A stretch of DNA of 64,000 nt from an uncultured Thermoplasmata archaeon (GTDB taxonomy: Archaea; Thermoplasmatota; Thermoplasmata; SG8-5). The notes under the pieces are model-generated. The model ran no database searches, was not told the origin of the DNA, and saw only the letters and a program-made list of their open reading frames with translations. Numbering within the stretch: position 1 is the first letter of the stretch; every line of letters begins with the position of its first letter. The stretch lies in NCBI GenBank assembly GCA_964354755.1, contig CAYHBA010000001.1, positions 224,009 to 288,008 on the forward strand. The letters are read 5' to 3'. This document shows, in pieces, positions 5,100 through 54,035 of this stretch. The position numbers were made by a program, and so were the translations under genes.

Positions 5100-6955
5100 T
5101 GTCCCCGAGCATGTGCAGGTTCCTGGCTCTCCAGATTTTGGCCGTGCTGATTCTTTCGGCACTAGCACTCCCGGGGGTTCATGGGCAGGGAGCCGATGAG
5201 AAATGGACCTTCATGGTCTACATGTCGGGCGACTCAAGCCTCGACGAGAACATGCCCGAAGACATCCGGGAGATGCAGTCCGTGGGCTCGTCCGAGATGC
5301 TGGACATCATTGTCCTGTACGATTCGTCAGGCTTCGATGACACGAAGCTCATGAAAGTGAATGCTGGGGGAACAGCCGACCTGGGACTTGGCCTAATAAA
5401 CCAGACATGGGCAGGCGAACTTGACCTGGGCGAGCCCGGGGTTCTGAGCCAGTTCGTGATATGGGCTGCGGAAACGTATCCGGCCGACAGGTACATGCTG
5501 GACCTCTGGGGCCACGGCAACGGCTGGCCAGGTATATGCCCGGACAAGGGGAACTACCTGACCCTGCCCGAGCTGAACACCGCTCTGGGGGCTGCCTCGG
5601 CCACAGGGCTCCAATTGGATCTGCTCAGCATGGACGCATGCCAGATGGGCATGATGGAGATAGCATACGATGTTCGCGACTATGCGGATTACGCCCTGCT
5701 CTCCCAGAAGGACATACCCGTGGACGGGTGGCCCTACGACCTTTTCCTGAGCAGGCTTGCAGGCAATGGCACCGTGGCCGGGAAGGGAGCGGCTATGATA
5801 GAGGACTATATCACGTGGGGGAAGGTGCACAGCTATTACTCGCTGACGCTGGCACTCATCGACCTCTCCGCGATGGAACAGCTTGCCGGGGCAGTCGACG
5901 GCTATGCCCTGGAGGCCATTTCGGATGCGGCATACTTCAACATGGAGTTCGCGGCGGCCAGGGGGCTCACCGAGAAATACGACGGCAACGCGCAGTACGA
6001 CCTAATCCATCTCCTGGAGAATGTCGACAACTGCACGCAATGCAAAAGCCTTGAGGCGCTGGCCGATGATGTCCGCTCGGCGTTCGCCGCCGCCGTTGTC
6101 CATGAGAACAGCTGGTCGAGCGCCACGGACCTGGAGAAGGCCAACCACGCCAACGGGCTCTCTGTCTGGTTCCCCATCAACGCCCCGACCTGGGACTATA
6201 TGGCGACATCGCTCGCCCGGGACACGCACTGGGACGAATTCCTGGGTTCCATGTCCGCATACTTCCAGCTTCCCGGAAGGATTGAAATTTCCTATGAAGC
6301 CGATGCGGAGCCACTGGATTCGGACGAGGACGGATTGTTGGATTCGGTGAGAATCACGCACGAATCGGCCGGGCAGAATGCCGCCAGGGTTGAGCTGTAC
6401 GGCCCTGACGGTTCTCTCTTCGCGAGGGAAACAATGGCCGGTGAAGGGGCCGCAGATATCGCGCTGGGAAACCTGGGCGCCTACCAGGCCGCAGCCTACC
6501 TCCGCGATGCGGACGGAATTCTGCTCAATTATTCATTTTTCGGCACTGGCCTTACAAAGGAGGGGCTCAGCGTCATATCCGGTCATGTCAAATCAGGCAC
6601 GGGCAGGGGCCAAAGATGGGTCAATATCGCCTTACTGGACGGGCAAGGAAACATTGTCAAATCCACTGTGACGGATTATTACGGATTCTACAGAATCGAG
6701 GTGGTCGTGCCCACTGACACGGACGGAACCGGTCTGGTTCTGGAATGCGGCCTGGGCCCGGACCGGGCAAATGTGACGGTGGGCAGCCTGGCTCCCGAAA
6801 ACGAGTACGATTTCACACTCTCGTCCGCTGGAATGGACGTGAAATGGATCGTCAGGGCCATAGGCATACTGAACCTATCGGGAATATGCTGCCTGGTCTA
6901 CTGGGCTGCCTGGGGCAGGCGTGAAAGGTCAAGGAAATTCGGCAAATCCCAATAG
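5099..6955 (+). CDS. Clostripain-like (C11 family) cysteine peptidase, secreted, with C-terminal TM anchor
   Basis: Signal peptide. His-Gly (DLWGHGNGW) and Ala-Cys (SMDACQMG) catalytic dyad motifs typical of C11/legumain-fold peptidases. C-terminal hydrophobic helix plus basic tail. The start may be ATG at 5111. Confidence 0.6.
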   Translation: MSPSMCRFLALQILAVLILSALALPGVHGQGADEKWTFMVYMSGDSSLDENMPEDIREMQSVGSSEMLDIIVLYDSSGFDDTKLMKVNAGGTADLGLGLINQTWAGELDLGEPGVLSQFVIWAAETYPADRYMLDLWGHGNGWPGICPDKGNYLTLPELNTALGAASATGLQLDLLSMDACQMGMMEIAYDVRDYADYALLSQKDIPVDGWPYDLFLSRLAGNGTVAGKGAAMIEDYITWGKVHSYYSLTLALIDLSAMEQLAGAVDGYALEAISDAAYFNMEFAAARGLTEKYDGNAQYDLIHLLENVDNCTQCKSLEALADDVRSAFAAAVVHENSWSSATDLEKANHANGLSVWFPINAPTWDYMATSLARDTHWDEFLGSMSAYFQLPGRIEISYEADAEPLDSDEDGLLDSVRITHESAGQNAARVELYGPDGSLFARETMAGEGAADIALGNLGAYQAAAYLRDADGILLNYSFFGTGLTKEGLSVISGHVKSGTGRGQRWVNIALLDGQGNIVKSTVTDYYGFYRIEVVVPTDTDGTGLVLECGLGPDRANVTVGSLAPENEYDFTLSSAGMDVKWIVRAIGILNLSGICCLVYWAAWGRRERSRKFGKSQ

Positions 6956-8258: not shown

Positions 8259-9701
8259 ATGCCGGAAGACATTGTACTAGACAGGGATTTGGCCGTGAAG
8301 GCCGTGGACGCAGCGCTTGAAATGGGTGCGGAATATGCCGAGGCCAGGATGGAATCGTTCGTTTCGAACGGTCTCTTCCTGAAGAACGGGAACCCGGAGA
8401 TAGCCGGGTTCGGGACATACTCCGGCATGTGTGTAAGAGTGCTCATCCACGGGGGCATGGGCTTTGCATCGTCGGACATTCTCAACACCGATACAATGAA
8501 GTCCAGGGTCGAAACGGCCGTCAGGATGGCAAAGGCGTCGTCCAGGCTTGTCAGGGACAGGATAACGCTATCTGACGAGCCCACCCATGTCGCGGATTAT
8601 TCCGTTCCCCAGAAGAAGAAACTGGCCGATGTCGGGCTGGACGAGATTGTCAGCGCGCTCGGGCACATCGACAAGGCGATGACCGAAACTGCCCCGATCG
8701 TGAGCAGGTTCATGCAGCTGGTCATGGAGGAGAGGACCAAGTTCTTCGCCAACTCGGACGATTCGAGGATTTATTCTGTGATCCCGAGAATCGCCATCTT
8801 CACGATACCGACCATAAAGGACGGAGACAAGATGGCACAGGCCATGCTCCAGAGGGGGGTGTCAATGGGCTGGGAGTACATGGACCCCCTGGCCCGCGCC
8901 GAGGAGATATGCCACGAGATAGCCATGACGCACAAGAACATGAAGGAAGGCGTCAAGGCGCCTGCCGGAAAGATCGACATGGTGCTCGGCCCTGAAGTCG
9001 TGGGCATAGCCGCCCACGAGTCATGCGGCCATCCGTACGAAGCCGACCGCATATCAGGCAGGGAAGCCGCGCAGGCAGGAGAGTCATTCGTGAAGGCGGA
9101 CATGATGGGCACCAGGATTGGCAGCGACGCCGCCACCGTGGTGGACGACCCCACGCTCGAGAATTCCTACGGCTATTATCTGTACGACGATGAAGGCGTT
9201 AAGGCCAGGCCCAAGATCCTCATTAAAAACGGCATGATAAACGAGTTCCTGCATAACCGCGAGACCTCCTCGGCCATGGACATGGGCTCCAGCAACGGCG
9301 GGGCCAGGGCCAACAACTACAACCGCGAGGCAATTGTCAGGATGTCCAACACGTTTGTGGCGCCCGGAGACCATGCTGACGGGGAGCTGTTCGAGGGCAT
9401 AAAGCTGGGAGTTTACATGAAGAGCTTCATGGAATGGAACATCGACGACAAGCGTTACAACCAGCGTTATATCGGCAGGGAAGCTTATCTCATCGAGAAC
9501 GGGCAGGTCACGAGCCCAGTCAGGGCGCCGATACTGGAACTGACTACACCGGCGTTCTGGGCCGCGATCGACGCGGTCAGCAAGAAGCTGGAGTTCGCGG
9601 CCGCAACCTGCGGGAAGGGGGAGCCGGCCCAGGGCGTGCCCGTGTACACCGGAGGTCCGCACATCCGCCTGAGGGGCATCACCCTGGGGGTGGGAAAATG
9701 A
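8259..9701 (+). CDS. tldD: TldD-family metalloprotease
   Basis: HESCGHPYEADR (HExxxH) and the family-typical length. Translationally coupled (ATGA) to the downstream pmbA. Confidence 0.85.
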   Translation: MPEDIVLDRDLAVKAVDAALEMGAEYAEARMESFVSNGLFLKNGNPEIAGFGTYSGMCVRVLIHGGMGFASSDILNTDTMKSRVETAVRMAKASSRLVRDRITLSDEPTHVADYSVPQKKKLADVGLDEIVSALGHIDKAMTETAPIVSRFMQLVMEERTKFFANSDDSRIYSVIPRIAIFTIPTIKDGDKMAQAMLQRGVSMGWEYMDPLARAEEICHEIAMTHKNMKEGVKAPAGKIDMVLGPEVVGIAAHESCGHPYEADRISGREAAQAGESFVKADMMGTRIGSDAATVVDDPTLENSYGYYLYDDEGVKARPKILIKNGMINEFLHNRETSSAMDMGSSNGGARANNYNREAIVRMSNTFVAPGDHADGELFEGIKLGVYMKSFMEWNIDDKRYNQRYIGREAYLIENGQVTSPVRAPILELTTPAFWAAIDAVSKKLEFAAATCGKGEPAQGVPVYTGGPHIRLRGITLGVGK

Positions 9702-11038
9702 CCGACTGGTGCTCACTGAAGCCTGCCGAGCTGCCCGAGGCCATCGTGAAAAAAGCCCTCAAGATGGGCGCGGACGATGTCATATGCACATCCGAGACAG
9801 GCGACACCAAGCAGATAAGGTTCGCAAACAACTCGGTGACTGCTTCGAAGTCATGGGCCAGCACTGAAATAAACATTTACATCACCAAGGATAAGCGCAT
9901 ACTGTCCACGGACATTACAATGCTTTCTGAGATCGACAGAGCCCTCGACGAGCTGGCCAAGAGAGTGAAACTCATGGAGCCGAACGACGAGTTCGGCGGA
10001 ATCGCCCAGGGCATCGGAAAGTACAGGAAGGACATGGCCGATGCGACAATCGCGACCATGGTCGAGGAACTGTACGACCATGTGGACGCTGCCATAGCCT
10101 CCGCCCAAGAGGAAGGCGCCAGCAGGGTCGCCGGTGTCCTGTACTCCAAAACGCAGCAAGTTCGCTTGGCCACGTCGGGCGGCGCGGTCGGCTCCTACGG
10201 CGACTCGGCCCTGGAGATATCGGTCCGGGCCATGTCGGACGCCCAGAGCTCGGGGCACATGGTCCAGTCCGTCACCAGCCCATGGAGGTTCGACCCGGAA
10301 AGGGTCGGCAGGGAGGCCGGGAGGCTTGCCAGGGAATCCAGGAACCCTGAAACAGGCGAAGAGGGCAAATTCGACGTTGTTTTCTCGCAGATGATATTCG
10401 CCAACATTCTCGAACATGTCGGCGCTTCCTGTTCGGCCGGGACGGTCGATGCGGGAATTTCATTCCTCAAGGATTGCCTGGGAAAGGGCGTGGCAAGCCC
10501 CGAATTCAATTGTTATGACGACGGGACCGATCCGGAATCGATACTGTCCCCGCCTTTCGACCAGGAGGGGGTGCCCACCCGCAGGACCTCGCTGTTCGAG
10601 AAGGGTGTGCTGAAGAACTACCTGCATAACACCAGCACGGCCAAGCGGTACAATACCGCGTCCACGGGGAATTCCGGGCTGGTTTTCCCCAATCCCTGGA
10701 CAGTGTGCATGGAGCCGGGCATGAAAACCAAGGACCAGCTGATATCGCAGGTCGACAGGGGGTACTACATGACCAACACATGGTACACGCGGTTCCAGAA
10801 CTACCAGACCGGGGATTTCTCCACGATACCGAGGGACGCCATCTTCCGCATCGAGAAGGGCAGGCTCGTGGGCCCTGTGAAAGACATCAGGATATCCGAG
10901 AACATGCTGAACATCCTGAAGAATGTCAGGGCCGTGGGAAACGACCCGATGCTGGTGCACTGGTGGGAGGTCGAGAGCCCCGTAATATGCCCGCATGTGC
11001 TGGTGGAGAAGGTAAATATTACGAAGAGCACGCAGTAG
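9698..11038 (+). CDS. pmbA: PmbA/TldE-family protein
   Basis: Paralogous to TldD and lacks the HExxxH motif. ATG at 9698 overlaps the tldD stop. The track ORF 9434.. is an out-of-gene extension. Confidence 0.8.
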   Translation: MTDWCSLKPAELPEAIVKKALKMGADDVICTSETGDTKQIRFANNSVTASKSWASTEINIYITKDKRILSTDITMLSEIDRALDELAKRVKLMEPNDEFGGIAQGIGKYRKDMADATIATMVEELYDHVDAAIASAQEEGASRVAGVLYSKTQQVRLATSGGAVGSYGDSALEISVRAMSDAQSSGHMVQSVTSPWRFDPERVGREAGRLARESRNPETGEEGKFDVVFSQMIFANILEHVGASCSAGTVDAGISFLKDCLGKGVASPEFNCYDDGTDPESILSPPFDQEGVPTRRTSLFEKGVLKNYLHNTSTAKRYNTASTGNSGLVFPNPWTVCMEPGMKTKDQLISQVDRGYYMTNTWYTRFQNYQTGDFSTIPRDAIFRIEKGRLVGPVKDIRISENMLNILKNVRAVGNDPMLVHWWEVESPVICPHVLVEKVNITKSTQ

Positions 11039-11072
11039 ACTGCTATATTAAAAATTCAATGCAAAACAGCTG

Positions 11073-12941
11073 TTGTCAGGAAGCAAAAAAATGACATCAA
11101 TGGTTGATATGCTCCACATCTCTGCGAGGCCTTATACCCGCTGGTGGTGGTTCTCAGGGAAGATCAATGAAGAAGATGTGAAATATCAATTGGATTGGCT
11201 CAAAGAGAATTATTTTGGCGGGGTGGAAATTGCATGGATATACCCGCTCCCCGGTTCCGATCCCGGGCCAAAGTGGCTTTCTCAGGAATGGTCTGACATC
11301 GTCGCCTTTGCAAAAGGATATGCGGAAAAGATCGGCCTTGGTTGTGATTTCACCTTTGGTTCATTGTGGCCGTTCGGCGGTCCAATCGTGGATGAAATGG
11401 ATGCATCGAGGAATTTCCTGGGACTTTCAGAACAGAGAATAAAAAAATCATGGGCGGAGCGGGATTCACCTCCCAGCTATGTGCTCAATCATCTCGATCG
11501 TGCATCACTCAGTCGATATGCTGGCAAGATGGGCGCAGCCCTCTTTGACGCATTGAACATTGGACCGTCCGCGCTTTTCTGCGACTCTTGGGAAGTGGAC
11601 ACTGATATGCTCTGGACCGATGGCTTTGATGTGTCATTCGCACAAAGGTTCGGCTATGATGTTTCTCCCTACATGCAGAAGTTGGACGAGTTTCCCGATA
11701 TTCGATACGATTACCGGAAGTTGTTATCCGACTATGTGCTCAACGAGTTTTACATACCGTACACAAACAATTGTAATTTACTCAAAGGTATTTCCAGAGT
11801 TCAATGTCATGGCGCACCTACTGACCTCGTCGCCGCATATGCTGCAGCTAATATTCCAGAGAGCGAAGCAATCTTATTCGATCCGCACTTTTCCCAGTTC
11901 GCCTCTTCGGCTGCGACCCTCACGGGTAAAACGGTCGTATCTGCGGAATCCTTCACATGTCTCTATGGATGGAAACGATATCCCGGACCCGGCGATTTCC
12001 AAAACCACGAGCATGTCGCGGACATGAAATTAGTGGCCGACGCGCTTTTTGCCAATGGAATAAACCTGATAATCTGGCATGGCATGCCCTACAATCCAAA
12101 AGGCGGCAATAACAGATTTTACGCATCGGTACATGTCGGCCCGGACAGCTGTTTCATTGACGAACTCCCCGCATTCAATCGTTATCTCGAACGCATTAGT
12201 TCCTTTATGCGACTTGGACAGAATTTCACCGACATCGCGGTGTACCTTCCGCTTGAAGACAATTGGATGAAGAGTGTGCTGCCCGAGAAACTCCGCAGGC
12301 CGAGCGCGAAATACTTCTGGGAATTGCATTATCAAAGGATCCCTGAGAACTTGGTTGGGTATAGGCCCACCTGGATATCCAATTATTTTTTAAAGGACGC
12401 ACAGTATCGCAAGGATGGGCTGCATTGTGGCCGCGCCGTCTTTAGCTCCTTGTACATCGACGTGGAATGGCTTGATCACGAGGCGCTCTTGAACATTCTC
12501 TGTCTTGCAGAGAAGGGGCTTCCCATATGTCTCAAGAAAAGACCGAATCAACCAGGGCTGAAAAAGAATCCTGATTTCGATAAAAATCTCGCCAAACTAT
12601 TGGAACATCACAATGTGAGGGCCGACCTGCTGAAAATTAATAAACTTCCACCTTTGGTTGCGGGTGAAGAAATACCCGAGTTCTTCTGCCGGATTTCAAA
12701 GGAGGCAGCATTCATATTCTTCGCCCATCCAAAAACAAAGGAATTGAAATATCCTATGAAGTACGGACAATCGCTATGCGAAAAGTCCATTGAAATACCT
12801 ATAAAGGTCCATATTTTCAATAATAATATCAATGTAAGATTGGTATTCGAACCATATCAATCCATACTTCTGAGAATAAACAAGAATGGCGACACCTTTT
12901 TTGAGGATATACGATTTTTACCGAAAGAACCGATTCGATGA
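11073..12941 (+). CDS. Hypothetical protein, possibly glycoside-hydrolase-like
   Basis: Long ORF with host-like GC and codon usage. An N-terminal RWWWF motif is present. No confident family assignment from sequence alone. Confidence 0.45.
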   Translation: MSGSKKMTSMVDMLHISARPYTRWWWFSGKINEEDVKYQLDWLKENYFGGVEIAWIYPLPGSDPGPKWLSQEWSDIVAFAKGYAEKIGLGCDFTFGSLWPFGGPIVDEMDASRNFLGLSEQRIKKSWAERDSPPSYVLNHLDRASLSRYAGKMGAALFDALNIGPSALFCDSWEVDTDMLWTDGFDVSFAQRFGYDVSPYMQKLDEFPDIRYDYRKLLSDYVLNEFYIPYTNNCNLLKGISRVQCHGAPTDLVAAYAAANIPESEAILFDPHFSQFASSAATLTGKTVVSAESFTCLYGWKRYPGPGDFQNHEHVADMKLVADALFANGINLIIWHGMPYNPKGGNNRFYASVHVGPDSCFIDELPAFNRYLERISSFMRLGQNFTDIAVYLPLEDNWMKSVLPEKLRRPSAKYFWELHYQRIPENLVGYRPTWISNYFLKDAQYRKDGLHCGRAVFSSLYIDVEWLDHEALLNILCLAEKGLPICLKKRPNQPGLKKNPDFDKNLAKLLEHHNVRADLLKINKLPPLVAGEEIPEFFCRISKEAAFIFFAHPKTKELKYPMKYGQSLCEKSIEIPIKVHIFNNNINVRLVFEPYQSILLRINKNGDTFFEDIRFLPKEPIR

Positions 12942-13477
12942 CATCACTGACCTTTGAGTTACATTTTATCAAGACTCACCTGGGACGGCGGGGGAGCAAC
13001 ACCAGTTGCGACCAATCCAAATTATGAATCCAGCTGGGGAGCATACGACATGTAAACTACCAGCCCCTAAAGGGACTAGCGTTTGTTGCCAGGGCTGGAT
13101 GTTTACCTAGGCAGCCTTGCACCTGATTATCAAAGCTAAGATGCTTTGATTTCATATGATGGAAAATGTACGGTGCAAGGCGGTCTATCTTTTGCATGCA
13201 TTCGTGTAAAGGCCTTTCATCCCTGGCTTAAAATCCAGGGGGTTCGGAGCGACCACACTTGGTCGCGACTAAACCGAATCTTGGATTCGGTGATACCGGC
13301 CTTTATCACTAAGCAGCCATTGTGGCATTAGAAAATGTTATAAACGTCAGCAGCTTGGCGGTTGCACCCGAGAATAAACCATGCAGGAATAGCCAAGCCT
13401 GGTCTACGGCGCTAGATTCAGGGTCTAGTCCTTAGTGGTTCTCCGGTTCGAAGCGAAGGCGAACGGCAATTAATTGC

Positions 13478-13763
13478 AGTATCGTTCGCTGAGTTCAGGA
13501 CGAGAAACGGTTTCAAGCAACCTATAGCATTTCTCGTCCGTGACTGCATCGAGCTTGCTCGATGCAATTGAGCTGGACTTCGCGAACTTCCGGATTCCTG
13601 CATCTATTCTTTCCAATTTGCTGTATCGTTCGCTGAGTCAGGACGAGAAACGGTCGTCAACAACCCTGAGCATTTCTCGTCCGTGACCGAGTCGAGCTTA
13701 CTCGACTCGATGTTGGCAAAGTCCTTCGTGAAAATCCGGATTCCTGCATCACATTCTTTTGGT
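13478..13763. repeat. Two tandem copies of a ~143-bp unit, each containing two hairpins
   Basis: Units at 13478-13620 and 13621-13763 share cgttcgctgag..caggacgagaaacgg...catttctcgtccgtgac...cggattcctgcatc. Each has a 10-bp stem (ggacgagaaa/tttctcgtcc) and a perfect 22-24-nt palindrome. The palindrome sequence differs between copies. Confidence 0.8.
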
Positions 13764-13846
13764 GCGCAACACGGTTATTTCAGAGCAAGTTATAAAAACT
13801 CTTTATAGTATCATGTATTGGTGGAATTACCCGCGGGGGCAGCAGA

Positions 13847-15526
13847 GTGATTGACAAGGGCTTCAACTATCTGATTTACGAGGAGAAATCCGACATCGCG
13901 TTCAAGATGTTCACCGACCTCATCAGCTCTGGGTCTCCAGGCCTCTGCATAACCACGCTGTACCCTCAGAAACTTCAAAAGATGTACGGGATGGACAAAG
14001 CCCAGGTGCATTGGCTCTCGGACTCGACCGGCGACAAGGAAACCTTAAGCCCAACCAGGCTGGATTTCGAGATCACCAGGGTCATCAACAAGTTCATCAA
14101 GGGCGGGGGCGAACCCGTGTTCCTCCTGGACGGCATGGCCTACCTGTCCCTGGAGAACGATTACGACAAAGTGAGAAAATTCATCAAGCGCATCAACGAC
14201 ATGGCCTCCATGCACGATGCCACAATCATGATCGTGATAAATCCGGACTCCTTCTCCAAGGAGACCGTGGCCATGCTTGAGAAGGACTTCGACAAGATAG
14301 GGAGGCCAAATGAGCTCGACCCCTCCCTCGGAGGCGGGCATCCCGCGCCGGCTCCGACCGGGGCAACCCCGACCCATGCACCCATTCCGCCTGTCGTTTC
14401 CTCAGCCAGCCTGCGCATACAGATGCCTCCGGAATCGCCTGTCGATTTGCCCTTGGAGGAGGAACTGGAGCTCGAGATAGAAGACATTTACCTCATCCAC
14501 AGGGGGACAGGCACGCTCATCCAGCGCAGGACCTGGCGGGAGCAGGACCTCATCGACCCGGACCTCATAGGGGGGATGTTCCAGGCCATCCTCGATTTCA
14601 TAAGCAACTCTTTTGCCAGCAGCCAGGCGTCCGAGTTCAGCAGGATGGAGGTCAAGGGCTACATCATTTTAATTGCGGACGGCAAGTACATCTCCGAGGC
14701 TATTGTATTCTCGGGCAAGGCCGAGGAATACATACACAAGATCCTGAACGATATCAAGAGGGTGTTGAAAGAGAACATCGCCGACATCGAAGGCCAATAC
14801 GGAAACGTGTTCAAGAATTACGATGGCGATGTGAGCAAACTCAGGGGCACCAGGAAATCACTGGACGCTCTGGCTCTTGGCATCAACAAGGCACTCGAGC
14901 CGCATATGAAGAAGGGCGTGAAGAAGCACCTCACCGATGTCGAGAGGCGGCAGAGCCAGGAGAAGTACAACCAGGCGATTGCCCTCGGGAGGTCGAAGAA
15001 ATACGATGACGCCCTCAAGGCATACGACGAGGCCCTGGCCATAGACCCGTGCAATATCCAGTCGCTGTTCAACAAGGCGGTTGTCCTCCAAATGCTGGGC
15101 AGGGTGCCGGAGGCGCTTGTGTGCTACGACCGCGCCCTCGAGGTGAACCCGAACGATTCCGAGACCTGGGGCAACAGGGGCATAGCCCTCAGGAGCCTGG
15201 GAAGGACGGAAGAGGCCATTGAGTCATACTACAAGGGGCTGGGCATTAACCCCGGGGATTCGGCCCTGTGGAGCAACCTGGGGATCGCGCTGAGAAGCGT
15301 GGGCAGGGTCAAGGAGGCCATTGAGTGTTATGACAAAGCCCTGGAAATCAATCCGAGCGACGCGGGCGTGTGGAGCAACAAGGGCGTGGTCCTGGGCAGC
15401 ATGGGCCTTCTGAAGGAGGCCATCGAGTGCTACGACAAAGCCCTGGCAATCGACCCGGGCAGGAAGCTCGCCCAGAGAAACAGGGATATCGCAATAAAGG
15501 AATTGGAGAAGAGGAGTGTGAAATAG
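13847..15526 (+). CDS. DUF835 (degenerate KaiC/RecA-like) - Roadblock/LC7-like - TPR repeat protein
   Basis: N-terminal ~150 aa matches the archaeal DUF835 pattern (GSPGLCITT...VFLLDGMAYL...IMIVINP). The middle segment IYLIHRGTGTLIQ...KGYIILIADGKYISEAIVFSG has Roadblock/LC7 character. Six or more TPR repeats at the C-terminus. Confidence 0.6.
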   Translation: MIDKGFNYLIYEEKSDIAFKMFTDLISSGSPGLCITTLYPQKLQKMYGMDKAQVHWLSDSTGDKETLSPTRLDFEITRVINKFIKGGGEPVFLLDGMAYLSLENDYDKVRKFIKRINDMASMHDATIMIVINPDSFSKETVAMLEKDFDKIGRPNELDPSLGGGHPAPAPTGATPTHAPIPPVVSSASLRIQMPPESPVDLPLEEELELEIEDIYLIHRGTGTLIQRRTWREQDLIDPDLIGGMFQAILDFISNSFASSQASEFSRMEVKGYIILIADGKYISEAIVFSGKAEEYIHKILNDIKRVLKENIADIEGQYGNVFKNYDGDVSKLRGTRKSLDALALGINKALEPHMKKGVKKHLTDVERRQSQEKYNQAIALGRSKKYDDALKAYDEALAIDPCNIQSLFNKAVVLQMLGRVPEALVCYDRALEVNPNDSETWGNRGIALRSLGRTEEAIESYYKGLGINPGDSALWSNLGIALRSVGRVKEAIECYDKALEINPSDAGVWSNKGVVLGSMGLLKEAIECYDKALAIDPGRKLAQRNRDIAIKELEKRSVK

Positions 15527-16822: not shown

Positions 16823-16855
16823 GTTATAGACCTAAAACTATATTTTTGCCCCATC
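16823..16855. other. attL (B-O-P') of the integrated element
   Basis: tatagacctAAAACTATATttttgccccatc. The core AAAACTATAT is identical to the one at attR. The ttttgccccatc arm is the exact reverse complement of the attR arm gatggggcaaaa. Confidence 0.65.
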
Positions 16856-17808: not shown

Positions 17809-18247
17809 AACCCTGATAATCGGGCTGAGTCAGGAAATTGCGGACCTGATGATGAAGGGCGGCATCGATGTCGTGGAGTTCAAGCTGCATTGTACTGATT
17901 TATCTCTGGTGGTTCTGACCTGCATATCTTCCCGCGTGAAGAAGGCAGACCATCAGGATCTTGTCAAGATGCTCAAGAAAGCCGGGCGCACCTATATCAC
18001 GCTGTTTCTTTCGGATGCCCAGATTCCAACGCTGATGGCCATCAGCGCAGATGTCGGTGGCATATCTGGCTCGTATCGTTGCCATCATGAAGGGATATTT
18101 GTCACGTATGAAGGAAAGACATTCAACATTCTGCTGAAGTTCGTGCATGAGAAAGTTGGCGCCAAGTTGCTGTTGAGCCAGAGACTTCAAGACGCGCTGG
18201 CTGAAAAGAATGGCGTCATCGAACGACAGGCCGCGACAATGGGATAA
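17777..18247 (+). CDS. Hypothetical protein immediately upstream of the large terminase, positional candidate for a small terminase subunit
   Basis: TTG start with a GGAGGA RBS 6 nt upstream. Ends 4 nt before the terminase start. No recognisable motifs. Confidence 0.35.
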   Translation: MAKKESIKYHETLIIGLSQEIADLMMKGGIDVVEFKLHCTDLSLVVLTCISSRVKKADHQDLVKMLKKAGRTYITLFLSDAQIPTLMAISADVGGISGSYRCHHEGIFVTYEGKTFNILLKFVHEKVGAKLLLSQRLQDALAEKNGVIERQAATMG

Positions 18248-18251
18248 TTGT

Positions 18252-19916
18252 ATGACTAACAATGCGCTCCTGAAAGCGCTTGTCAATCTCGAGAAGAGCG
18301 ACAACGAACGAACCCTCGCCCTCCGGAATGCAGTCACCTGGGCGATTAAATATGGCATTGTGCCGAGAGGACCCGAGGCAGGAAAGAAGTTCTCCTTCGC
18401 TGGCCGGCCATGGATGGTCGAACCGTATCTGGTATTGTCCCAGCCCCATGGCCGCGCCGTATTCGTGAAGGCTCGCCAGCTGGAGTTCTCGACCATGGCA
18501 ATCAACGTCGAGCACTACTGGGCGGACAAGCGGCCGTATACGGCCTGCGCCCATGTCTTCCCCACTGCCAAGCAGATGAACAAATTCTATGAGGAACGAT
18601 TAACGGTGATCTACCGCAAAGGCTCCAGATTCTTTGAAATGCTGGCCAACATGAAAGCCGATGGCATGGAAGTTCTGAACCGGAAGATGCACCTCTTCCG
18701 GAACAGCAGCTATTATTCCATGGAGTTCACGGTCGGCGAGAACGGGGGGAAATCCGAAGGTCTCAGGTCCCCAGCGCTGGACGTTCTGGCCTGCGATGAG
18801 CGCGCGGATTTCCCAGCTGATATTTCTCCAGTTCTGACGGAAGCTCTGAGCCACAGTGATATAAAAGTCCAGTTCGACCTGGGAACCCCGACCTACAACG
18901 ATACAGAGCTGGACAAGATGTGGAAGCTCAGCACTATGGAGGAATGGAAAGTTCATTGCAAGTCATGCGATCGCAAGCAAAATCTTACCATGGACAACCT
19001 CATGGCCAATGAATACGGGGAATATTTCAAAGGTTGCATAAATTGCCGTGCGGAGCTGGACACGACAATCGGCTCCTGGGTCGCCTTCAATCCGGAGGGA
19101 TTCTACCGAGGATTCCACCTCAACCAAATCGTAGCGCCCTGGGTATCCGCAAAGGAAATCCTGCAGAAAAAAGCAGAATACCTGCCCCGACGATTCGCAA
19201 ACGAGGTTATGGGCATGGCCTTTGTTGGGGATGAAAAGCTCCGCTTCAGAGCCAAGGTCATGGCCCGCGCCGATACCACAGGAGAATACCGACCGACAGT
19301 GATTTACGGAAATACCGTGGTAATCGGAGTCGATCACGGAAACTCGACCCGATGGATCGCAATATCCCGAAAAGAAGATGGGAAGACAGTCTGGCTTGAC
19401 ACTGGGGAGATCGACGATGTCGATATCAACAATCATGCGCTGAAGATCGCGGAGTTGGCGTATGGCTACGAGAGAAACAGCGTTCGCGTCGCCCTCATGC
19501 TCGATAGCGGTTATGGAAAGGCGCAGAACCAGAAGCTGATGAAGTTGTTCCCGCACCGGGCCTTTGCGGTCTTTTACGGCGGGGAGAAGATGACCCGCCC
19601 TGCATGGCAGGACAAACCCCTGGAACAACACGTCACAATCGAGCATACCAGTCTCTGCGAGAATGCCGAGCAATACCTGAACGCTGGAAACTTTGTCGTG
19701 CCTTTCGGGCAGGGAGGCATAGACTCGACGCGCTGGTCAAGTCTTCTTGATGAGTTCGACGCTGTGCGAGTTGAAGAAGAGGAGATAAAAACCGGGGGAA
19801 AGAAGCGGGTCTTCGTGACCAAACATGGGCACGGCTACATGGCCATGGCCTACGCCTTGCTCTGGTTCGAGAGAACCGGATTCAACCGGGAGCTGAGAAA
19901 GCCGAGGTCCGCATGA
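18252..19916 (+). CDS. Terminase large subunit (lambda GpA-like family)
   Basis: FAGRPWMVEPY...AVFVKARQLEFST resembles the GpA N-terminal ATPase region, and the length and position fit. Internal ATG at 18252 chosen over the track start 18210. Confidence 0.65.
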   Translation: MTNNALLKALVNLEKSDNERTLALRNAVTWAIKYGIVPRGPEAGKKFSFAGRPWMVEPYLVLSQPHGRAVFVKARQLEFSTMAINVEHYWADKRPYTACAHVFPTAKQMNKFYEERLTVIYRKGSRFFEMLANMKADGMEVLNRKMHLFRNSSYYSMEFTVGENGGKSEGLRSPALDVLACDERADFPADISPVLTEALSHSDIKVQFDLGTPTYNDTELDKMWKLSTMEEWKVHCKSCDRKQNLTMDNLMANEYGEYFKGCINCRAELDTTIGSWVAFNPEGFYRGFHLNQIVAPWVSAKEILQKKAEYLPRRFANEVMGMAFVGDEKLRFRAKVMARADTTGEYRPTVIYGNTVVIGVDHGNSTRWIAISRKEDGKTVWLDTGEIDDVDINNHALKIAELAYGYERNSVRVALMLDSGYGKAQNQKLMKLFPHRAFAVFYGGEKMTRPAWQDKPLEQHVTIEHTSLCENAEQYLNAGNFVVPFGQGGIDSTRWSSLLDEFDAVRVEEEEIKTGGKKRVFVTKHGHGYMAMAYALLWFERTGFNRELRKPRSA

Positions 19917-20215
19917 CCACCGAGGAAGAGATCAGAGAGCTGGAGAAGGTCCTGGCGGAGCTGAGGCGAAAGCCTTCTGACCGCCCGCAGGGAAACGCAA
20001 CTTCCTCGATTGATATCCTCCGATACCTTATCGGCCGGCCGGAGAAGCTCCGGGCAACGACCAAGATAATGAAGGCCTTCAACCTCTCTTACTCCATGTT
20101 CGTGGAGAGAATGTACATGTCCCTGGGCAAGGGCTGGATCGAGAAGGAGAGGAAAAACAACAGGGTGGTCTGGTCGGTCACGGAGGAGGGGAGGAAGATA
20201 TTGAGGGAGGAGTGA
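19913..20215 (+). CDS. Small winged-helix DNA-binding protein
   Basis: 100 aa with a wHTH-like IDILRYLIGRPEKLRATTKIMKAFNLSYSMFVERMYMSLGKGWIEKE segment. Confidence 0.4.
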   Translation: MTTEEEIRELEKVLAELRRKPSDRPQGNATSSIDILRYLIGRPEKLRATTKIMKAFNLSYSMFVERMYMSLGKGWIEKERKNNRVVWSVTEEGRKILREE

Positions 20216-22068
20216 AGTGGCAATCAATGCAACGGAGTTCCGACTTTTCGAATTATTTTATATATCCTCTGAATTATGCAGGTTCTATGAAAGCGGGAGC
20301 ATTTCCATTTAGTGTACTAAAAATGGAGGGGAGACTTACAATACCATTTTTCCAGCGAGGCTATATCTGGATAGAAGACAATTGGCAAGATTTACTCGAA
20401 GACATGGAAAGCGCAAACAAGAAACATTTCTGGGGATCATTAATTTTCAAACATGAAAAGGAAACAACCGGTGAACCAAAGAAAATTATCATCATCGACG
20501 GTCAACAAAGATTAACGACGATGAGTATAATGTTAAAGGCATTATACGATACATTCTCGCCGGGTATTAAGACAAGCACAAAATCAGTAGTAGAAGACTT
20601 GTTGTTATACAGGGTAAGTTCTACATCTCCAAAGTTTCAAGTCAGAATCCAACACTCACGTATTGACAGAAAATCCTATAAAAAGGTTATAACGTCTGGA
20701 TTAGGAGAAACAGAATTAACGGATGCTGAAATCAAAGATAATAATCCAATAATGAATTGCTACAGGTGGTATACTGAGAAACTTTCATCCAAAACCGAAA
20801 GTGCCCGGGAATTTATCTTCAACACCCTTACAAATATTGATAACAAAATGCTGGTCATCATCGACCTTGATGAAGATGATAATGAACAGACAATTTTTGA
20901 TACAATCAATACGGCAGGGGTAAGATTAACAAGTACTGACATTATAAAAAACAAACTCTTCCAAAAAGTCGTGGAATTATTCGATGAAGACCAGGCTATT
21001 GAGTATTATAAGAATACATGGGAGAATTGTTTTTTAAAGGATGAAGAAGCGAATGCTTATTGGCTTGGTGAGAGTTCAGAAGGAAGGATGACAAGGACCA
21101 ATAGCGATATTTTGCTCCATTCGGTAGCGGTTATCCAAGGATTTTACAATCCAGTGGATGATAAGCTCGGGGATTTACCCACCCGTTACAAGGAAAAAAT
21201 CGATGGATATGATTCATCAACCAAAGACAAACTCATTGAATTCATCAAAGAAATCAAAGCCTTTGCGACCATTTATAGGATGGATGTACCTGTATTCGAT
21301 AAAGACTTCCTATTGACATACACCAGGCAAGAGGAAAGATTGTTCCATATCCTCCATGAATTGAATATATCAACATTTCATCCTTACATACTATACATCC
21401 TGAAGAAATATCCCGCTGGGAGTGCGGAGAGAGCTAAAGGATTATACGACCTCGAAAAATTCGTCATGAGGAATATGATGGCGAAGAATCAAACAAGGAG
21501 CTATATCAATTATTGTAAAGAATTCATAGACGATCCATCTGAGATTATGAGGAAATATGCAAAGATAACTGATGCTGAAGTGGCTGCAGGTCTGAGGGAC
21601 ATCAGGACTAATGGAACCGCATCATTGATATTGTTCTGGATAGAGTTAAAACGGCTTGAAGACCCGCACGATGTCAAAGAGCTGCATTACCATTATTCCC
21701 TTGAACACATAATGCCTCAGAAGTGGGAGCCACATTGGACGGATCTTCCAACAACTCATACAGATGGCACGCCATTATCCGTTGACGAAATAGCTGAGGC
21801 CAAAGCTGAACGTTACAAACGCGTGTACTGGCTTGGCAATATGACTCTTCTCAGAACCAGGTTGAACTCTTCACTTAGGAATCATACCTATGAAAGAAAA
21901 ATGAATGGAGAGGGAAAGAAGAAAGGAATCAAGGATTATGCCTCTCTGACAATCACACGTGCAGACCTCGTAGAGCCTTTCCAAACGCTAGGGCAAACAA
22001 AATGGAATGAATCGAAGATAGAGGGACGAACTAGGAAACTTGAAGAGGAAATCAAGGCATTGTGGTAA
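20212..22068 (+). CDS. GmrSD-family type IV restriction endonuclease (DUF262 ParB-like NTPase + DUF1524 His-Me nuclease)
   Basis: Hallmark IIDGQQRLTT motif in the N-terminal domain. C-terminal HYHYSLEHIMPQKW matches the DUF1524 EHI.P nuclease motif. The gene is AT-rich. Confidence 0.8.
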   Translation: MKWQSMQRSSDFSNYFIYPLNYAGSMKAGAFPFSVLKMEGRLTIPFFQRGYIWIEDNWQDLLEDMESANKKHFWGSLIFKHEKETTGEPKKIIIIDGQQRLTTMSIMLKALYDTFSPGIKTSTKSVVEDLLLYRVSSTSPKFQVRIQHSRIDRKSYKKVITSGLGETELTDAEIKDNNPIMNCYRWYTEKLSSKTESAREFIFNTLTNIDNKMLVIIDLDEDDNEQTIFDTINTAGVRLTSTDIIKNKLFQKVVELFDEDQAIEYYKNTWENCFLKDEEANAYWLGESSEGRMTRTNSDILLHSVAVIQGFYNPVDDKLGDLPTRYKEKIDGYDSSTKDKLIEFIKEIKAFATIYRMDVPVFDKDFLLTYTRQEERLFHILHELNISTFHPYILYILKKYPAGSAERAKGLYDLEKFVMRNMMAKNQTRSYINYCKEFIDDPSEIMRKYAKITDAEVAAGLRDIRTNGTASLILFWIELKRLEDPHDVKELHYHYSLEHIMPQKWEPHWTDLPTTHTDGTPLSVDEIAEAKAERYKRVYWLGNMTLLRTRLNSSLRNHTYERKMNGEGKKKGIKDYASLTITRADLVEPFQTLGQTKWNESKIEGRTRKLEEEIKALW

Positions 22069-24942: not shown

Positions 24943-25293
24943 ATGACATTATGTAATAAACTGTTAAAGCATGTTAAATGTATGTTAATCATCTTTAAAT
25001 CGTATCATAACTATTTACAGTTAATGGACGAATCATTAGAAATAATCAACTGGTTGAAAAGTGGAAAATATAGAGTTCCAATGCTAAACGAATTACTATC
25101 TCCTAAATCGCCATCTGAACTTGCTGGCATTCTAAATATAAATCGTGCCTCTGTTAGTAGGATAATAAAGGATCTAACTAGTAAAAAATTGATAGATTGC
25201 ACTGAATCTGGTGCCAAAACAAAGTTATGTATTATTAATGAAAAAGGCAAACACATAATAAAACTCTTTTATGATATCGTGGGTGGTGGATGA
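24943..25293 (+). CDS. Winged-HTH transcriptional regulator, possible restriction-modification controller
   Basis: SPSELAGILNINRASVSRIIKDLTSKKLID is HTH-like. It lies immediately upstream of, and overlaps, the putative endonuclease gene. Confidence 0.45.
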   Translation: MTLCNKLLKHVKCMLIIFKSYHNYLQLMDESLEIINWLKSGKYRVPMLNELLSPKSPSELAGILNINRASVSRIIKDLTSKKLIDCTESGAKTKLCIINEKGKHIIKLFYDIVGGG

Positions 25294-26050
25294 TATAAAT
25301 ATTTCATTTCTTAAAAAGGCAATGGTGAATAGACGGGTACCAAAACCCGCTTCAGGCACGTTGTCTGGACACGCTGCTGGAGAACCCTTTGATAAACTTG
25401 TTTATCAATTAATTAAAGAAAAATATCCTAATAAAACTTTTAGGCAATATGAATACTTAAATAAATTATACCTTGATCATCCCAAGGTAACAACTTACAA
25501 AGATAGGTATAGTTTAATTTCATCTCCTGCATTGAGACTTTTATTAAATCGAGGCGTTGGTGTCACTAAAAAATGGACCTCTACTAATCAACTGAAAGAA
25601 AAGCAAGATGATACAGCTGATACATTATTGATTTCTGGAAATTTCCATCATATTATTGATGTAAAAACACGAAATATAGACAAAAAGGCACTTGCACCAA
25701 ATATTATTTCTGCTAAAAAGTTAGCAGAGATGTCTTTAATAATGATTAAAGAAACGGATTTTGATAGTTTTAAAATAACATACGTAGGTGTCGATTGGGC
25801 CCTTGAGGGGGCTTATTTAGTTTGTAGTAAAACAACAATGAAAGATATATTTCAGGCAACTCCCTCTTCCTTGTATATAAATTGGTCTGCAGCCAATCAA
25901 ATCCAGTTCCATGTTGAAAAACTTGACCAAAGTTATAAAAAAGGAATTAAGACTTGGTGTAAAGAATATCTCGCTCATTATGTCGAATCTGCAAATCATC
26001 GAATGAAACACTTTCGTAAGAAATTTATTAAACCATTCGATATCGATTAG
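25271..26050 (+). CDS. Putative type II restriction endonuclease (PD-(D/E)xK candidate)
   Basis: ADTLLISGNFHHIIDVKTR has PD...(D/E)xK spacing. The gene is convergent with and abuts the methyltransferase gene. Confidence 0.45.
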   Translation: MISWVVDDINISFLKKAMVNRRVPKPASGTLSGHAAGEPFDKLVYQLIKEKYPNKTFRQYEYLNKLYLDHPKVTTYKDRYSLISSPALRLLLNRGVGVTKKWTSTNQLKEKQDDTADTLLISGNFHHIIDVKTRNIDKKALAPNIISAKKLAEMSLIMIKETDFDSFKITYVGVDWALEGAYLVCSKTTMKDIFQATPSSLYINWSAANQIQFHVEKLDQSYKKGIKTWCKEYLAHYVESANHRMKHFRKKFIKPFDID

Positions 26051-27835
26051 TTAATAAATCATGGAATCTAAAATTTTATCGATATCTTCCTTTCCTTTAC
26101 TTGATTGTGTTTTAATTATGTGGTCTACTATCTTCACGATTTTATTATGTATGGCAACTTCATTATCATTTGACCAGTCGATTAATCTTATGGGTATTTT
26201 TGAAAGTGGTTTTTCAGAAAATTCAAGTACGCCACCTCTTGCTAAGCCTTGATATTTTAACCAAGTTAATATGGTGTTTGAATTTAGTTGGGCTAGAATG
26301 AATCGAATATCCTCCTTTACCCATTGTTTTAAAACGATACCAGTTACATCTTGTGTCGGATAAAATTGCCCCTGGATATATGAAAAACGAGCATAATTTC
26401 TCTTATCAATTCGTTCTTTACATGGACAGAATATTTTAGAATCGTTTGTATGAAACAATTCCCAATTTCTTAAGAACACCCATTGCCACCAGGGAATATT
26501 ACGATTATAGGAATATCTGGCATTTAATTTTTCTTTGTGTTTTAATAGTTGATTATATACATGTGGCATCTTCTCTTTTAATTCCCTCTCTGAATGAAGA
26601 TTGTTAAGGAAGATATAGGGGGTATATCCAGTAGCCCAATATTGTTTAAGATCATACGCTTTTATTACGTTGATAATGTATGATTTTTCTGTCTTATTAA
26701 GTGTGTTCAAATCTGAGAGTTGGAATGCTCGGTCCAATCCGCTTACAAGACCATTTCCTATTTCTGCAATATCTCCGAGTCTAATATTTCTCTCAAGATT
26801 GAAATCCTCATTTATCTTTAAGGTTGGATTAGAGAGTGTATAGTATTTCGTTCCAGTAAAATTAATTTCGGAACATATATTTTTAGGGATATCCAATTCC
26901 TCTAAATCGTCTTTCGTGAAAAGTTTAGCTAAGCTATAATAATCTGTTTTTCCATTTAATGTACATTTTACTTTAGGAGAATATATGTGTTTTGTTTGTT
27001 TCAAAACAGAAATTATTGCTTCATATTGTGGTGGAATAATGTTCCAGGGCTGTCCGTTATGAAATTGATGGTGAAGGTATGCTTCATAAATATCTTCGTT
27101 CAGATAAGGATTTCTACTTGATAATTTATTGAGTATTACTGAAATTTCCTCTAGATGGGTAGCTGTTAATCGTTTCTTACTATTTACATTTACAACGAGG
27201 ATGGGCATATTTTGTTTTTTGATACTTTTAATGAATTTAAAGATAATGATCGAGGAGGACACATTATCAAATATCCTCATTTCATTAAAATTAATTATGT
27301 GTGTGATAGTTCCATTTTCTGTGAGAAAACGTCGTAATTTGCTGGCATGAAGGGTTTTTAACCAAAATCCCGGAGTAATAAAAATTAATTCTCCGTTTTC
27401 TTTTAATGCGTCTACAGATGAATAAATAAAGGGATATAGTAAATCTGCCAGGCTGTTCAATCGTTCTTTCCAGATTTCATTTTCTGTTAAATATTGTTGA
27501 AAATCTTTAGGCATGTTTTTCCATCTTACATATGGAGGATTCCCAATTACTAAATCGTAATGATTTTGTAATTCGAGCTTTAAGAAATCTGTATATTTCA
27601 TTTCTATCTTGGATTTATTGTCTAATGTATTATCAATTTCAAATGCATCGATATTATGGTAACCTAATTGTGATAAAATTTCAAGAAAGACTCCTTCGCC
27701 TGCTGATGGCTCACAAATTAGTTGTTTTTCCTTTATTGATGAAAGAGACACCATGAACTTGACAACAATTTCTGGGGTGAATATTTGTCCATACTGTTTT
27801 TCTTTTTCAACCATGATTACCACATCAATTAACAT
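26051..27835 (-). CDS. Type II N6-adenine DNA methyltransferase (gamma class, TaqI-like) with C-terminal target-recognition domain
   Basis: Motif X IFTPEIVVKFMV, motif I CEPSAGEGVFL and motif IV VIGNPPYV, in that order. Confidence 0.8.
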   Translation of the reverse strand: MLIDVVIMVEKEKQYGQIFTPEIVVKFMVSLSSIKEKQLICEPSAGEGVFLEILSQLGYHNIDAFEIDNTLDNKSKIEMKYTDFLKLELQNHYDLVIGNPPYVRWKNMPKDFQQYLTENEIWKERLNSLADLLYPFIYSSVDALKENGELIFITPGFWLKTLHASKLRRFLTENGTITHIINFNEMRIFDNVSSSIIIFKFIKSIKKQNMPILVVNVNSKKRLTATHLEEISVILNKLSSRNPYLNEDIYEAYLHHQFHNGQPWNIIPPQYEAIISVLKQTKHIYSPKVKCTLNGKTDYYSLAKLFTKDDLEELDIPKNICSEINFTGTKYYTLSNPTLKINEDFNLERNIRLGDIAEIGNGLVSGLDRAFQLSDLNTLNKTEKSYIINVIKAYDLKQYWATGYTPYIFLNNLHSERELKEKMPHVYNQLLKHKEKLNARYSYNRNIPWWQWVFLRNWELFHTNDSKIFCPCKERIDKRNYARFSYIQGQFYPTQDVTGIVLKQWVKEDIRFILAQLNSNTILTWLKYQGLARGGVLEFSEKPLSKIPIRLIDWSNDNEVAIHNKIVKIVDHIIKTQSSKGKEDIDKILDSMIY

Positions 27836-54007: not shown

Positions 54008-54035
54008 ATGGGGCAAAACTATATATTCGGAATAT
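54007..54035. other. attR (P-O-B') of the integrated element
   Basis: gatggggcaaaaCTATATattcggaatat. The arm gatggggcaaaa is the exact inverse of the attL arm, and the core AAAACTATAT is shared. Confidence 0.65.

Follow-up and report, generated by a model that had tools for sequence, protein, structure and literature searches.

What does an archaeal genome keep in a 900-bp gap that is dense in hairpins and ends in a tandem repeat? The gap lies in a 64,000-nt stretch of DNA from an uncultured Thermoplasmata archaeon of the SG8-5 lineage (hereafter the window, to whose positions coordinates refer), between a GH106-like gene (11073–12941) and the first of two DUF835-TPR genes (13847–15526). A preliminary description took it to be gene-free and proposed a novel structured RNA, a regulatory array or a replication-associated element. 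Our analysis suggests, with a probability of about 85%, that the region is a tRNA-Leu(CAG) gene split in its T-loop by a structured bulge-helix-bulge (BHB) intron, and that the intron and the 3' end of the tRNA have been tandemly duplicated. What we find is an interrupted housekeeping gene that looks functional and is of a known kind, the BHB tRNA intron; a new regulatory or replication element is not supported. Protein genes are indeed absent, with no open reading frame (ORF) above 61 amino acids; it is the tRNA-Leu gene that contradicts the description as gene-free. A coding remnant in 12900–13900 was rejected because stops occur throughout six frames, and the similar peptides of both repeat units reflect DNA identity alone rather than coding. 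For comparison, contigs with the same gene neighbourhood were collected through homologues of the DUF835-TPR protein; these and other related loci carry L-numbers.

Exons, splice motif and folding of the candidate tRNA-Leu(CAG) gene

The 5' exon (13383–13452; this and the other parts of the gene are on the + strand) matches the 5' portion of a class II tRNA, with acceptor strand GCAGGAA, a D arm, an anticodon arm carrying CAG, a long variable arm, the T-stem strand TCCGG and T-loop bases 54–59, TTCGAA (UUCGAA in RNA). The remainder of the tRNA is present twice. The first 3' exon (TCCGGATTCCTGCA, 13589–13602) supplies T-loop base 60, the 3' strands of the T stem and acceptor stem and the discriminator A, and an identical second copy lies at 13735–13748. 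Spliced in silico to 13589–13602 or to 13735–13748, segment 13383–13452 yields a tRNA-Leu(CAG) that is accepted by ARAGORN. The spliced tRNA aligns without gaps to the intronless tRNA-Leu(CAG) of the orthologous locus in L042 and L041, and its differences from these orthologues in the acceptor, anticodon and T stems are compensatory. Upstream, a TATA-like box (GTTATAAACG, 13337–13346) located ~38 nt 5' of the mature end is a putative tRNA-Leu promoter, and the block TT(A/T)TAAAC-N-CAGC...CTTGGCGGTTG.ACCCGAGAA preceding the tRNA is conserved in L036, L005 and L037.

Both 3' exons belong to the previously described tandem repeat, which is real: 13474–13612 and 13618–13759 share 80.6% identity (BLAST within the window, E 5e-27), and a repeat search resolved the units into three in-register blocks at spacings of 143–146. 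Tandem Repeats Finder did not report this 2 x ~144-bp repeat, and no further copies in the window were found by BLAST and pattern searches. Cassette 1 comprises an intron (13453–13588) and the first 3' exon, followed by a trailer and duplication junction (TCTATTCTTTCCAATTTGCT, 13603–13622) with short T runs only (T2–T3). Cassette 2 comprises an intron part (13623–13734), 80.6% identical to cassette 1, and the second 3' exon, after which comes a terminal trailer (TCACATTCTTTTGGTGC, 13749–13765) whose T4 run is a likely terminator. The same junction sequence separates the L036 cassettes, and its trailer part follows a third, decayed module in L005; the terminal trailer likewise comes after the final cassette of L036 and the sole cassette of L037. 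Because only T2–T3 runs follow the first 3' exon, read-through into cassette 2 is plausible.

A script search for the splice motif (3-nt bulge, 4-bp helix, 3-nt bulge) found a strict 3-4-3 BHB for both candidate introns. The central helix pairs UUCG (13447–13450) with CGAA (13583–13586) in cassette 1 and with UGAA (TGAA in DNA, 13729–13732) in cassette 2. With a slash marking the cut, the 5'-strand bulge is AA/G (13451–13453) and the 3'-strand bulge is CU/U (13587–13589) in cassette 1 and AA/U in cassette 2. Flanking the BHB are the T stem of 5 bp and a closing helix of 5–6 bp (CGAAG with CUUCG, or CGAAGG with CCUUCG), formed by 13454–13458 with 13578–13582 in cassette 1 and using the closing strand CCTTCG at 13723–13728 in cassette 2. 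Cuts after the second base of each bulge restore the T-loop UUCGAAU and therefore place the intron at position 59/60. Its length is 136 nt (13453–13588) via the first 3' exon and 282 nt (13453–13734) via the second. The duplicated unit consists of the P1 loop, P1 3' strand, P2, P3, 3' splice-site strand, 3' exon and ~20 nt of trailer. Cassette 2 has neither the 5' closing strand nor the 5' strand of P1 and therefore duplicates the 3' part alone; each 3' exon pairs into a BHB with the single 5' exon, giving two equivalent 3' splice sites.

Beyond the closing helix, the intron of cassette 1 folds into three hairpins: P1 (13459–13465 with 13483–13489), P2 (13498–13507 with 13530–13539) and P3 (13545–13554 with 13557–13566, capped by a CUUG tetraloop). 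P2 is composed of a 3-bp extension (13495–13497 with 13541–13543), a bulged purine (G13540), a 10-bp stem and a 22-nt loop. It is the hairpin noted earlier in each repeat unit, whose perfect 10-bp stem GGACGAGAAA/TTTCTCGTCC was correctly seen but whose loop had been counted as 25 nt. P3 corresponds to the palindromes TGCATCGAGC-TT-GCTCGATGCA and CGAGTCGAG-CTTA-CTCGACTCG, which, as described, differ in sequence and are both self-complementary. Cassette 2 has the 3' strand of P1 only (13627–13633), together with its own P2 (13641–13650 with 13673–13682) and P3 (13688–13696 with 13701–13709).

Comparison among homologous introns showed that these helices covary. RNAalifold applied to 10 homologous introns returned a consensus of T stem, BHB, closing helix and P1–P3 in which 17 of 36 pairs are compensatory. 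Across 11 distinct P2 sequences, 96.5% of cells are paired and 8 of 13 pairs have changed on both sides; the covariation score of 0.512 (versus 0.167 in shuffles) was reached by 0 of 500 shuffles, and all slid registers gave <50% pairing. Compensation is seen both in the P2 extension (UCA:UGA, CAC:GUG, CGC:GCG) and in the stem (GAGAAA:UUUCUC versus GAAUUU:AAAUUC or GGAUUU:AAAUCC). P1 and P3 are unrelated in sequence among introns, yet always form 7–11-bp hairpins, and P3 is usually CUUG-capped. The fold of 13383–13748 has z = -5.7 on the + strand and -6.4 on the - strand, with no shuffle as low. Thus the idea of a structured RNA holds to the extent that covarying helices, P3 CUUG tetraloops and + strand G-U pairs indicate structure at the RNA level. 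A single RNA of 300–400 nt over 13000–13450 does not hold, that interval being a composite of Element H (described below), the tRNA promoter and the tRNA 5' exon.

The gene escapes standard searches. ARAGORN found no tRNA in the unspliced window, nor in related loci unless these were spliced first, and Rfam returned no match in the whole window at the gathering score and only noise in 12700–14000 at E <= 10. Rfam is blind to the tRNA-Leu gene because the intron interrupts it; a covariance-model scan of related loci detected only intronless tRNAs and one with a canonical intron. RNase P, signal recognition particle RNA and riboswitches, to which the preliminary description could not match the region, gave no covariance-model match in Rfam either. 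That description had named a known housekeeping RNA as the finding that would overturn it, and in substance this is what the repeat proved to be, part of a tRNA-Leu(CAG) gene, though the Rfam scan was blank.

Blank ARAGORN and Rfam results would also suit a dead tRNA gene, one in which an element has inserted into the T-loop, gene, insert and duplicate are decaying, and another tRNA-Leu is used. Decayed cassettes or relics do occur in L005 (modules 2–3), L041, L047 and L028, and the locus is a rearrangement hotspot. Set against this, the exons are intact and covary with their orthologues, the 3-4-3 BHB is perfect for both cassettes, and at least seven related contigs keep the interrupted gene at this locus, with no second tRNA-Leu seen in the DNA examined of each. 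Moreover, the five cassettes of the window and L036 all share one and the same 14-nt 3' exon despite ~20% divergence of the remaining cassette. We consider death of the gene very improbable.

Several points nonetheless weigh against a spliced, working gene. Both strands fold equally well by energy, and the choice of strand rests on the exons, the P3 CUUG tetraloops and the G-U pairs, which fit the tRNA-sense strand. Splicing, choice of 3' exon and circularisation are predicted from sequence, and with 64 kb of genome in view a second intact tRNA-Leu(CAG) may lie elsewhere. The motif is relaxed in L005, L036, L037 and L039, whose 5' bulge either measures 2 nt or requires a 1-nt bulge in the facing strand. 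Finally, P2 members away from the orthologous locus were found with a pattern that fixes the P2 arms; because these arms served as the search key, ascertainment accounts for part of the apparent invariance of GGACGAGAAA across orders. Among the orthologous loci, for which a protein served as key, the upper half of P2 varies with compensation.

In the pathway we propose for the split gene, transcription would begin from the TATA-like box near 13340. Within the precursor, T-loop UUCG would pair with the intron-end CGAA of cassette 1 or UGAA of cassette 2, and CGAAG at the intron start with CUUCG; together with the T stem, these helices would form a BHB presenting both splice sites. P1, P2 and P3 would radiate from the closing helix, and the precursor would carry two interchangeable 3' exons. 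EndA is predicted to cut after A13452 and after 13588, or alternatively after 13734, and RtcB to ligate the exons, which would give the tRNA the normal T-loop sequence UUCGAAU; the intron would probably be released as a circle. tRNA end processing and CCA addition would follow the established archaeal pathway. No EndA gene was found among the window ORFs scanned against Pfam.

Other RNA classes were considered for the intron and rejected. A self-splicing group I or II intron is at odds with a length of 136 nt, which is too short, and no ribozyme core matched in Rfam (window at gathering score; 12700–14000 at E <= 10). For a box C/D guide RNA, 13453–13760 contains no RUGAUGA and three CUGA only, with no Rfam snoRNA match of weight. 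Judged by eye, P2 lacks a pseudouridylation pocket and is followed by no ACA box, contrary to an H/ACA guide RNA. A K-turn at the P2 junction, a hammerhead and other small ribozymes were likewise misfits in sequence by eye, with no Rfam match.

Turnover at the orthologous locus and origin of the array

Introns and cassettes turn over fast at this locus, where duplicated 3' ends recur. The closest relative, L036 (96% protein identity, flanks 92% identical at the nucleotide level), has three cassettes in the order A-A-B; in the window a B cassette comes first and a hybrid second. Identity is 93% between L036 copy 3 and window copy 1, 99% between L036 copies 1 and 2, and 91% between these two and the single L005 intron. 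One intron each is found in L037 (88% protein identity), which has a compensated P2 variant, and in L039 (88%), where the tRNA is inverted and mismatches at 2 of 10 stem pairs leave P2 degenerate. L005 (flanks 77% at the nucleotide level) has one intron followed by two more P1-P2-P3 modules from which the closing strand and 3' exon are missing, the third module still being followed by the shared trailer. At the same site, L044–L046 (85%) hold a 46-nt intron with a textbook BHB that consists of the closing helix and P1 only. L040 (81%) has no T-loop intron but a D-loop intron instead, along with a P1-P2-P3 module that lacks a 3' exon and lies behind a T9 run and a TATA-like box. Intronless genes are present in L041 (78%), which keeps a P1 relic, in L042 (76%) and in L047 (77%), where the gene is followed by a relic made of half a T-loop, ~90 nt and a second 3' exon.

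These states suggest that P2–P3 is cargo, unnecessary for splicing. It would be dispensable because the relatives' 46-nt intron at the same site holds P1 only, and its character as cargo is argued by the persistence, downstream of the tRNA in relatives, of P1-P2-P3 modules without an adjacent 3' exon.

The array itself may have originated at the DNA level from a single tandem duplication, followed by amplification, divergence and recombination between cassettes. One duplication is indicated because the internal junctions all share TTCTTTCCAATTTGCWG/TATCG, and recombination with divergence would explain both the mosaic second copy of the window and the different order in L036. As UUCGAA is self-complementary, a duplicated T-loop segment can pair with the original. 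Duplication of the 3' end would then make a BHB easy to form and could provide a route of intron gain and growth.

The directly repeated tRNA 3' ends of the window, L036, L047 and L028 might alternatively be scars of site-specific integration, left when mobile elements with an intron-bearing attP copy of that 3' end recombined with the gene as proposed for Caldiarchaeum tRNA-Thr. In that published model of intron gain, an intron-bearing attP crosses with an intronless attB and tRNA-fragment direct repeats remain (PMC3293823). The type of the first cassette does differ between the window and L036, and a ~37-kb provirus lies 3 kb downstream. That provirus, however, occupies a different site with its own 13-bp repeat (16834–16846 and 54015–54027), and the 132 nt between the 3' exon repeats contain no ORF, element body or integrase. 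The uniform internal junctions are also those expected of an amplified single tandem duplication. We therefore regard integration as improbable. An att-site duplication of the SSV/pNOB8 type was considered as well: the 3' exon repeats are present, an integrase-encoding element between them is not. A virus or plasmid origin was rejected, the region having no match in phage and plasmid collections and the P2 pattern none in viral contigs.

The remaining proposals saw the units as palindromic targets of a dimeric protein controlling the DUF835 operon, or as an element associated with replication. They drew on the perfection of the palindromes and on their position directly upstream of DUF835. Yet the palindrome sequence changes freely while complementarity is kept, as suits a single-stranded fold rather than a DNA site recognised by its sequence. 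DUF835 keeps its own conserved TATA box (13790–13800) and leader downstream of the array, beginning at 13788, and the orthologous loci align to the window from ~13733–13836 onward, most of them from 13791. The DUF835 promoter region is unchanged where the tRNA and hairpins are inverted (L039, L041, L044, L047), where the tRNA is intronless (L041, L042, L047, with the hairpin module absent in L042) and where tRNA-Leu is replaced by tRNA-Ala (L043). The same hairpins also occur inside tRNA-Arg and tRNA-Met genes that do not adjoin DUF835. Nothing points to a role in replication, and both proposals are hardly credible.

Intron relatives, Element H and neighbouring genes

Relatives of the split-gene intron occur beyond the locus. 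A scan with GGACGAGAAA-N18-30-TTTCTCGTCC over one genome per species gave 31 matches; in the five that fall in Thermoplasmata metagenome-assembled genomes (MAGs), the loop is exactly 22 nt and tRNA pieces surround each hairpin. An intron of like architecture interrupts position 59/60 in tRNA-Arg(CCG) and tRNA-Met(CAU) of 'Candidatus Proteinoplasmatales' SG8-5 (L009, L014) and in tRNA-Arg(UCG) of Methanomassiliicoccales archaeon UBA280 and a relative (L021, L035). The SG8-5 locus L034 (2103–2405) contains a tRNA-Leu(CAA) gene that was missed by ARAGORN and Rfam and has both a 98-nt D-loop intron and a 120-nt T-loop intron; P1, P3 and the closing helix of its T-loop intron are homologous and P2 is different. 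Locus L028 (1090–1390, minus strand) has a complete tRNA-Ile(GAU) with a canonical 32-nt intron, then a truncated copy of the T-loop intron. Here and in L047 (3520–3745, minus strand) the relic starts within ~20–30 nt of a complete tRNA gene and combines part of a T arm with intron-like sequence and a repeated 3' end.

In another reading the tRNA would be mainly a host, and P1-P2-P3 would be either a functional, probably circular small RNA or a selfish mini-element, expressed by way of BHB splicing and raised in dosage by cassette duplication. The module is dispensable for splicing in L044–L046 and persists without an adjacent 3' exon in L005 and, behind the T run and TATA-like box, in L040; P1 shows compensatory changes in modules without a 3' exon, and P2 covaries. 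In type A introns the extra P2–P3 segment lies between two copies of the 8-bp TGGCAAAG, one of which is left in the 46-nt intron. These direct repeats recall a DNA transposon of the miniature inverted-repeat transposable element (MITE) kind, but the module ends showed no terminal inverted repeats, and TGGCAAAG could equally have mediated deletion. Opposing evidence also includes the lack of C/D boxes and of any Rfam match, the resemblance of the L005 modules without 3' exon to decayed cassettes, and the part played by ascertainment in P2 invariance across orders. We hold a hosted RNA to be unlikely, if deserving of some credence. The covarying P2 hairpin is a candidate new structured RNA or protein-binding site. 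Somewhat more speculative is a broader proposal, that P1-P2-P3, perhaps with the hairpin pair 'motif M', represents a new class of small structured RNA in and around Thermoplasmata tRNA genes, expressed by BHB splicing and circularised, persisting also outside introns, and spreading at the DNA level with a copy of the tRNA 3' end. If so, 3' exon duplication around palindromic UUCGAA would be a general route of archaeal tRNA intron gain or enlargement.

Upstream of the tRNA-Leu promoter is Element H, a separate hairpin-rich element (13040–13311, + strand) with hairpins at 13052–13106, 13108–13187 and 13205–13311. All nested inverted repeats reported for 13000–13300 were found, and the fold of 12960–13340 has z = -5.4 (+ strand) and -5.8 (- strand), with no shuffle as low. 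The match of L036 to the window stops at 13037 and resumes at 13314, with 25 unrelated bases in place of ~275 bp. L041 carries a copy (6251–6448) that is 84% identical over 199 nt and lies after the DUF835 pair, not before the tRNA. Between these two copies, 51 of 51 predicted pairs are kept, 2 being compensatory and 3 changing between G-U and A-U. Conserved and structured, Element H changes place between genomes. It gave no Rfam match (12700–14000, E <= 10), and two of its 20–21-mers had no match in viral contigs. A hidden multi-intron or permuted tRNA in 12945–13350 was rejected: ARAGORN recognised no tRNA when up to three BHB-like segments were excised, in 4,275 combinations covering both strands.

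An extra ~52 nt in the Element H of the window (13246–13297) contain the motif GGAGCGACC..GGTCGCGACTAAACCG and the hairpin CCGAATC..GATTCGG, and recur with 82% identity downstream of the tRNA in L037 (3734–3788). The core, RAGCG-hairpin-CGCGACUNANCCG, is also found in the D-loop introns of L034 (2162–2191) and L040 (2603–2632), in both of which it is preceded by a copy of the first ~10 nt of exon 2. The hairpin covaries. It has 4 copies in 371 kb, always on the tRNA-sense strand and always inside or adjoining a tRNA-Leu gene (two D-loop introns, two flanking elements).

Other intergenic elements of the related loci are bounded by heptamers, with GGGTCTA or TTAGATC/TTAGATT in tandem, inverted copies opposite and a central GC-rich hairpin. 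They were seen in L037 (3700–3900 and 7020–7260), L044 (1110–1250), L040 (2330–2460) and L041 (6040–6080). Heptamer repeat number differs between the near-identical contigs L044 and L045, and the elements form a MITE-like family near tRNA-Leu/DUF835 loci. In the SG8-5 contig L043 (1–400), an intronless tRNA-Ala(GGC) and four tandem ~100-bp units precede the DUF835 orthologue.

Among the flanking genes, the GH106-like gene has a G+C content of 0.35–0.52, versus 0.58–0.63 in its neighbours, and is present only in the window and L036; at other orthologous loci a TldD/PmbA pair or a zinc-ribbon PQ-rich membrane protein adjoins the tRNA. The stretch 11040–13037 looks like a recent insertion beside the tRNA gene. 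As listed, two adjacent TldD/PmbA-family ORFs in 8259–11038 (8259–9701 and 9434–11038) share 268 nt. The true start of the second is probably further downstream, given the length of 430–446 amino acids of its orthologue in L037 and L039. On the other side, the two adjacent DUF835-TPR genes are paralogues, and the pair is conserved in all related loci; internal ~190-nt repeats of ~71% identity in the first (15167–15460) correspond to TPR units.

The provirus downstream is a ~37-kb insertion relative to L036 (16847–54014), bounded by the 13-bp direct repeat AAAACTATAT.. at 16834–16846 and 54015–54027. It is of the head-tailed type, with genes for terminase (18210–19916), portal (28031–29467), HK97-fold capsid (31505–32497) and tail tube (36762–37718), and it also carries GmrSD (20212–22068) and a HincII-like endonuclease with a methylase (25271–27835). 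Pfam found no provirus integrase in the ORFs tested.

Significance and comparison with known systems

ARAGORN and the Rfam tRNA model overlook tRNA genes of this Thermoplasmata group, and MAG completeness estimates that count tRNAs, as well as inferences on codon usage, would therefore be wrong; a covariance model of the intron would remedy the annotation. The origin of archaeal tRNA introns is an old question. At this one locus, between neighbour proteins of 76–96% identity, all states can be seen: no intron, minimal intron, cargo intron, amplified cassettes with alternative 3' exons, and decayed cassettes. A DNA-level route by 3' exon duplication, UUCGAA-aided BHB pairing and decay of one copy thus becomes directly testable. 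Long T-loop introns in Methanomassiliicoccales-related lineages also bear on the BHB substrates of euryarchaeal-type splicing endonucleases.

Non-canonical or multiple tRNA introns have been described in Crenarchaeota, Thaumarchaeota, Korarchaeota, Nanoarchaeota, ARMAN and Methanopyrus (PMC4033280; PMC8450103). Like the non-canonical introns of Thermoproteales, Thaumarchaeota, Korarchaeota and ARMAN, those reported here lie outside 37/38, are bounded by a BHB, are presumably cut by EndA and hide their genes from standard tRNA finders. Similar introns are shared by different tRNAs in both cases, which in Thermoproteales was taken as evidence of intron transposition (PMC4033280). The host differs, Thermoplasmata being absent from the lists in PMC4033280 and PMC8450103, as does length: archaeal tRNA introns are described as 'less than 100 nt' in a review (PMC4033280), versus 129–146 nt here. 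Further distinctions are the three-hairpin architecture conserved across orders and the tandem amplification of intron plus 3' exon. A search of the available literature library returned no paper linking tRNA introns with Thermoplasmata tRNA genes; PMC11291895, on Asgard archaea, shares both terms and was left unassessed.

In Caldiarchaeum subterraneum, tRNA-Thr(GGU) is proposed to have gained an intron by mobile-element recombination that left tRNA-fragment direct repeats (Sugahara et al. 2012, PMC3293823). There, as here, close genomes differ in the introns of one tRNA, a tRNA-fragment repeat lies beside the gene, and recombination of DNA rather than an RNA process would be responsible. The Caldiarchaeum repeats, however, are of a 5' fragment and are separated by a 1.8-kb insert that encodes a recombinase, whereas the 3' exons here stand ~130 nt apart with no element between them, in up to three copies, all predicted to be splice-competent.

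The tRNA-Trp intron of Haloferax and other Euryarchaeota carries a box C/D guide RNA. The T-loop intron similarly places a structured RNA with its own conservation within a BHB intron, from which splicing would release it; it differs in having no C box (RUGAUGA) and no Rfam snoRNA match, and in its location in the T-loop instead of 37/38. In the split and tri-split tRNA genes of Nanoarchaeum and Caldivirga, halves are joined through a BHB. Alternative halves could likewise be joined to one partner by BHB pairing here, but the parts are arranged in cis within a single transcript, and one tRNA results because the alternative 3' exons do not differ. The tRNA intronic circular RNAs (tricRNAs) of animals are excised tRNA introns that remain stable as circles (PMC4536317); a comparable circular fate is proposed for the 136- or 282-nt intron, in this case in an archaeon. 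What sets the present case apart from these systems is the host lineage, the length of the intron, its conserved three-hairpin cargo, the arrays of splice-competent 3' exons and the full series of intermediates at one locus.

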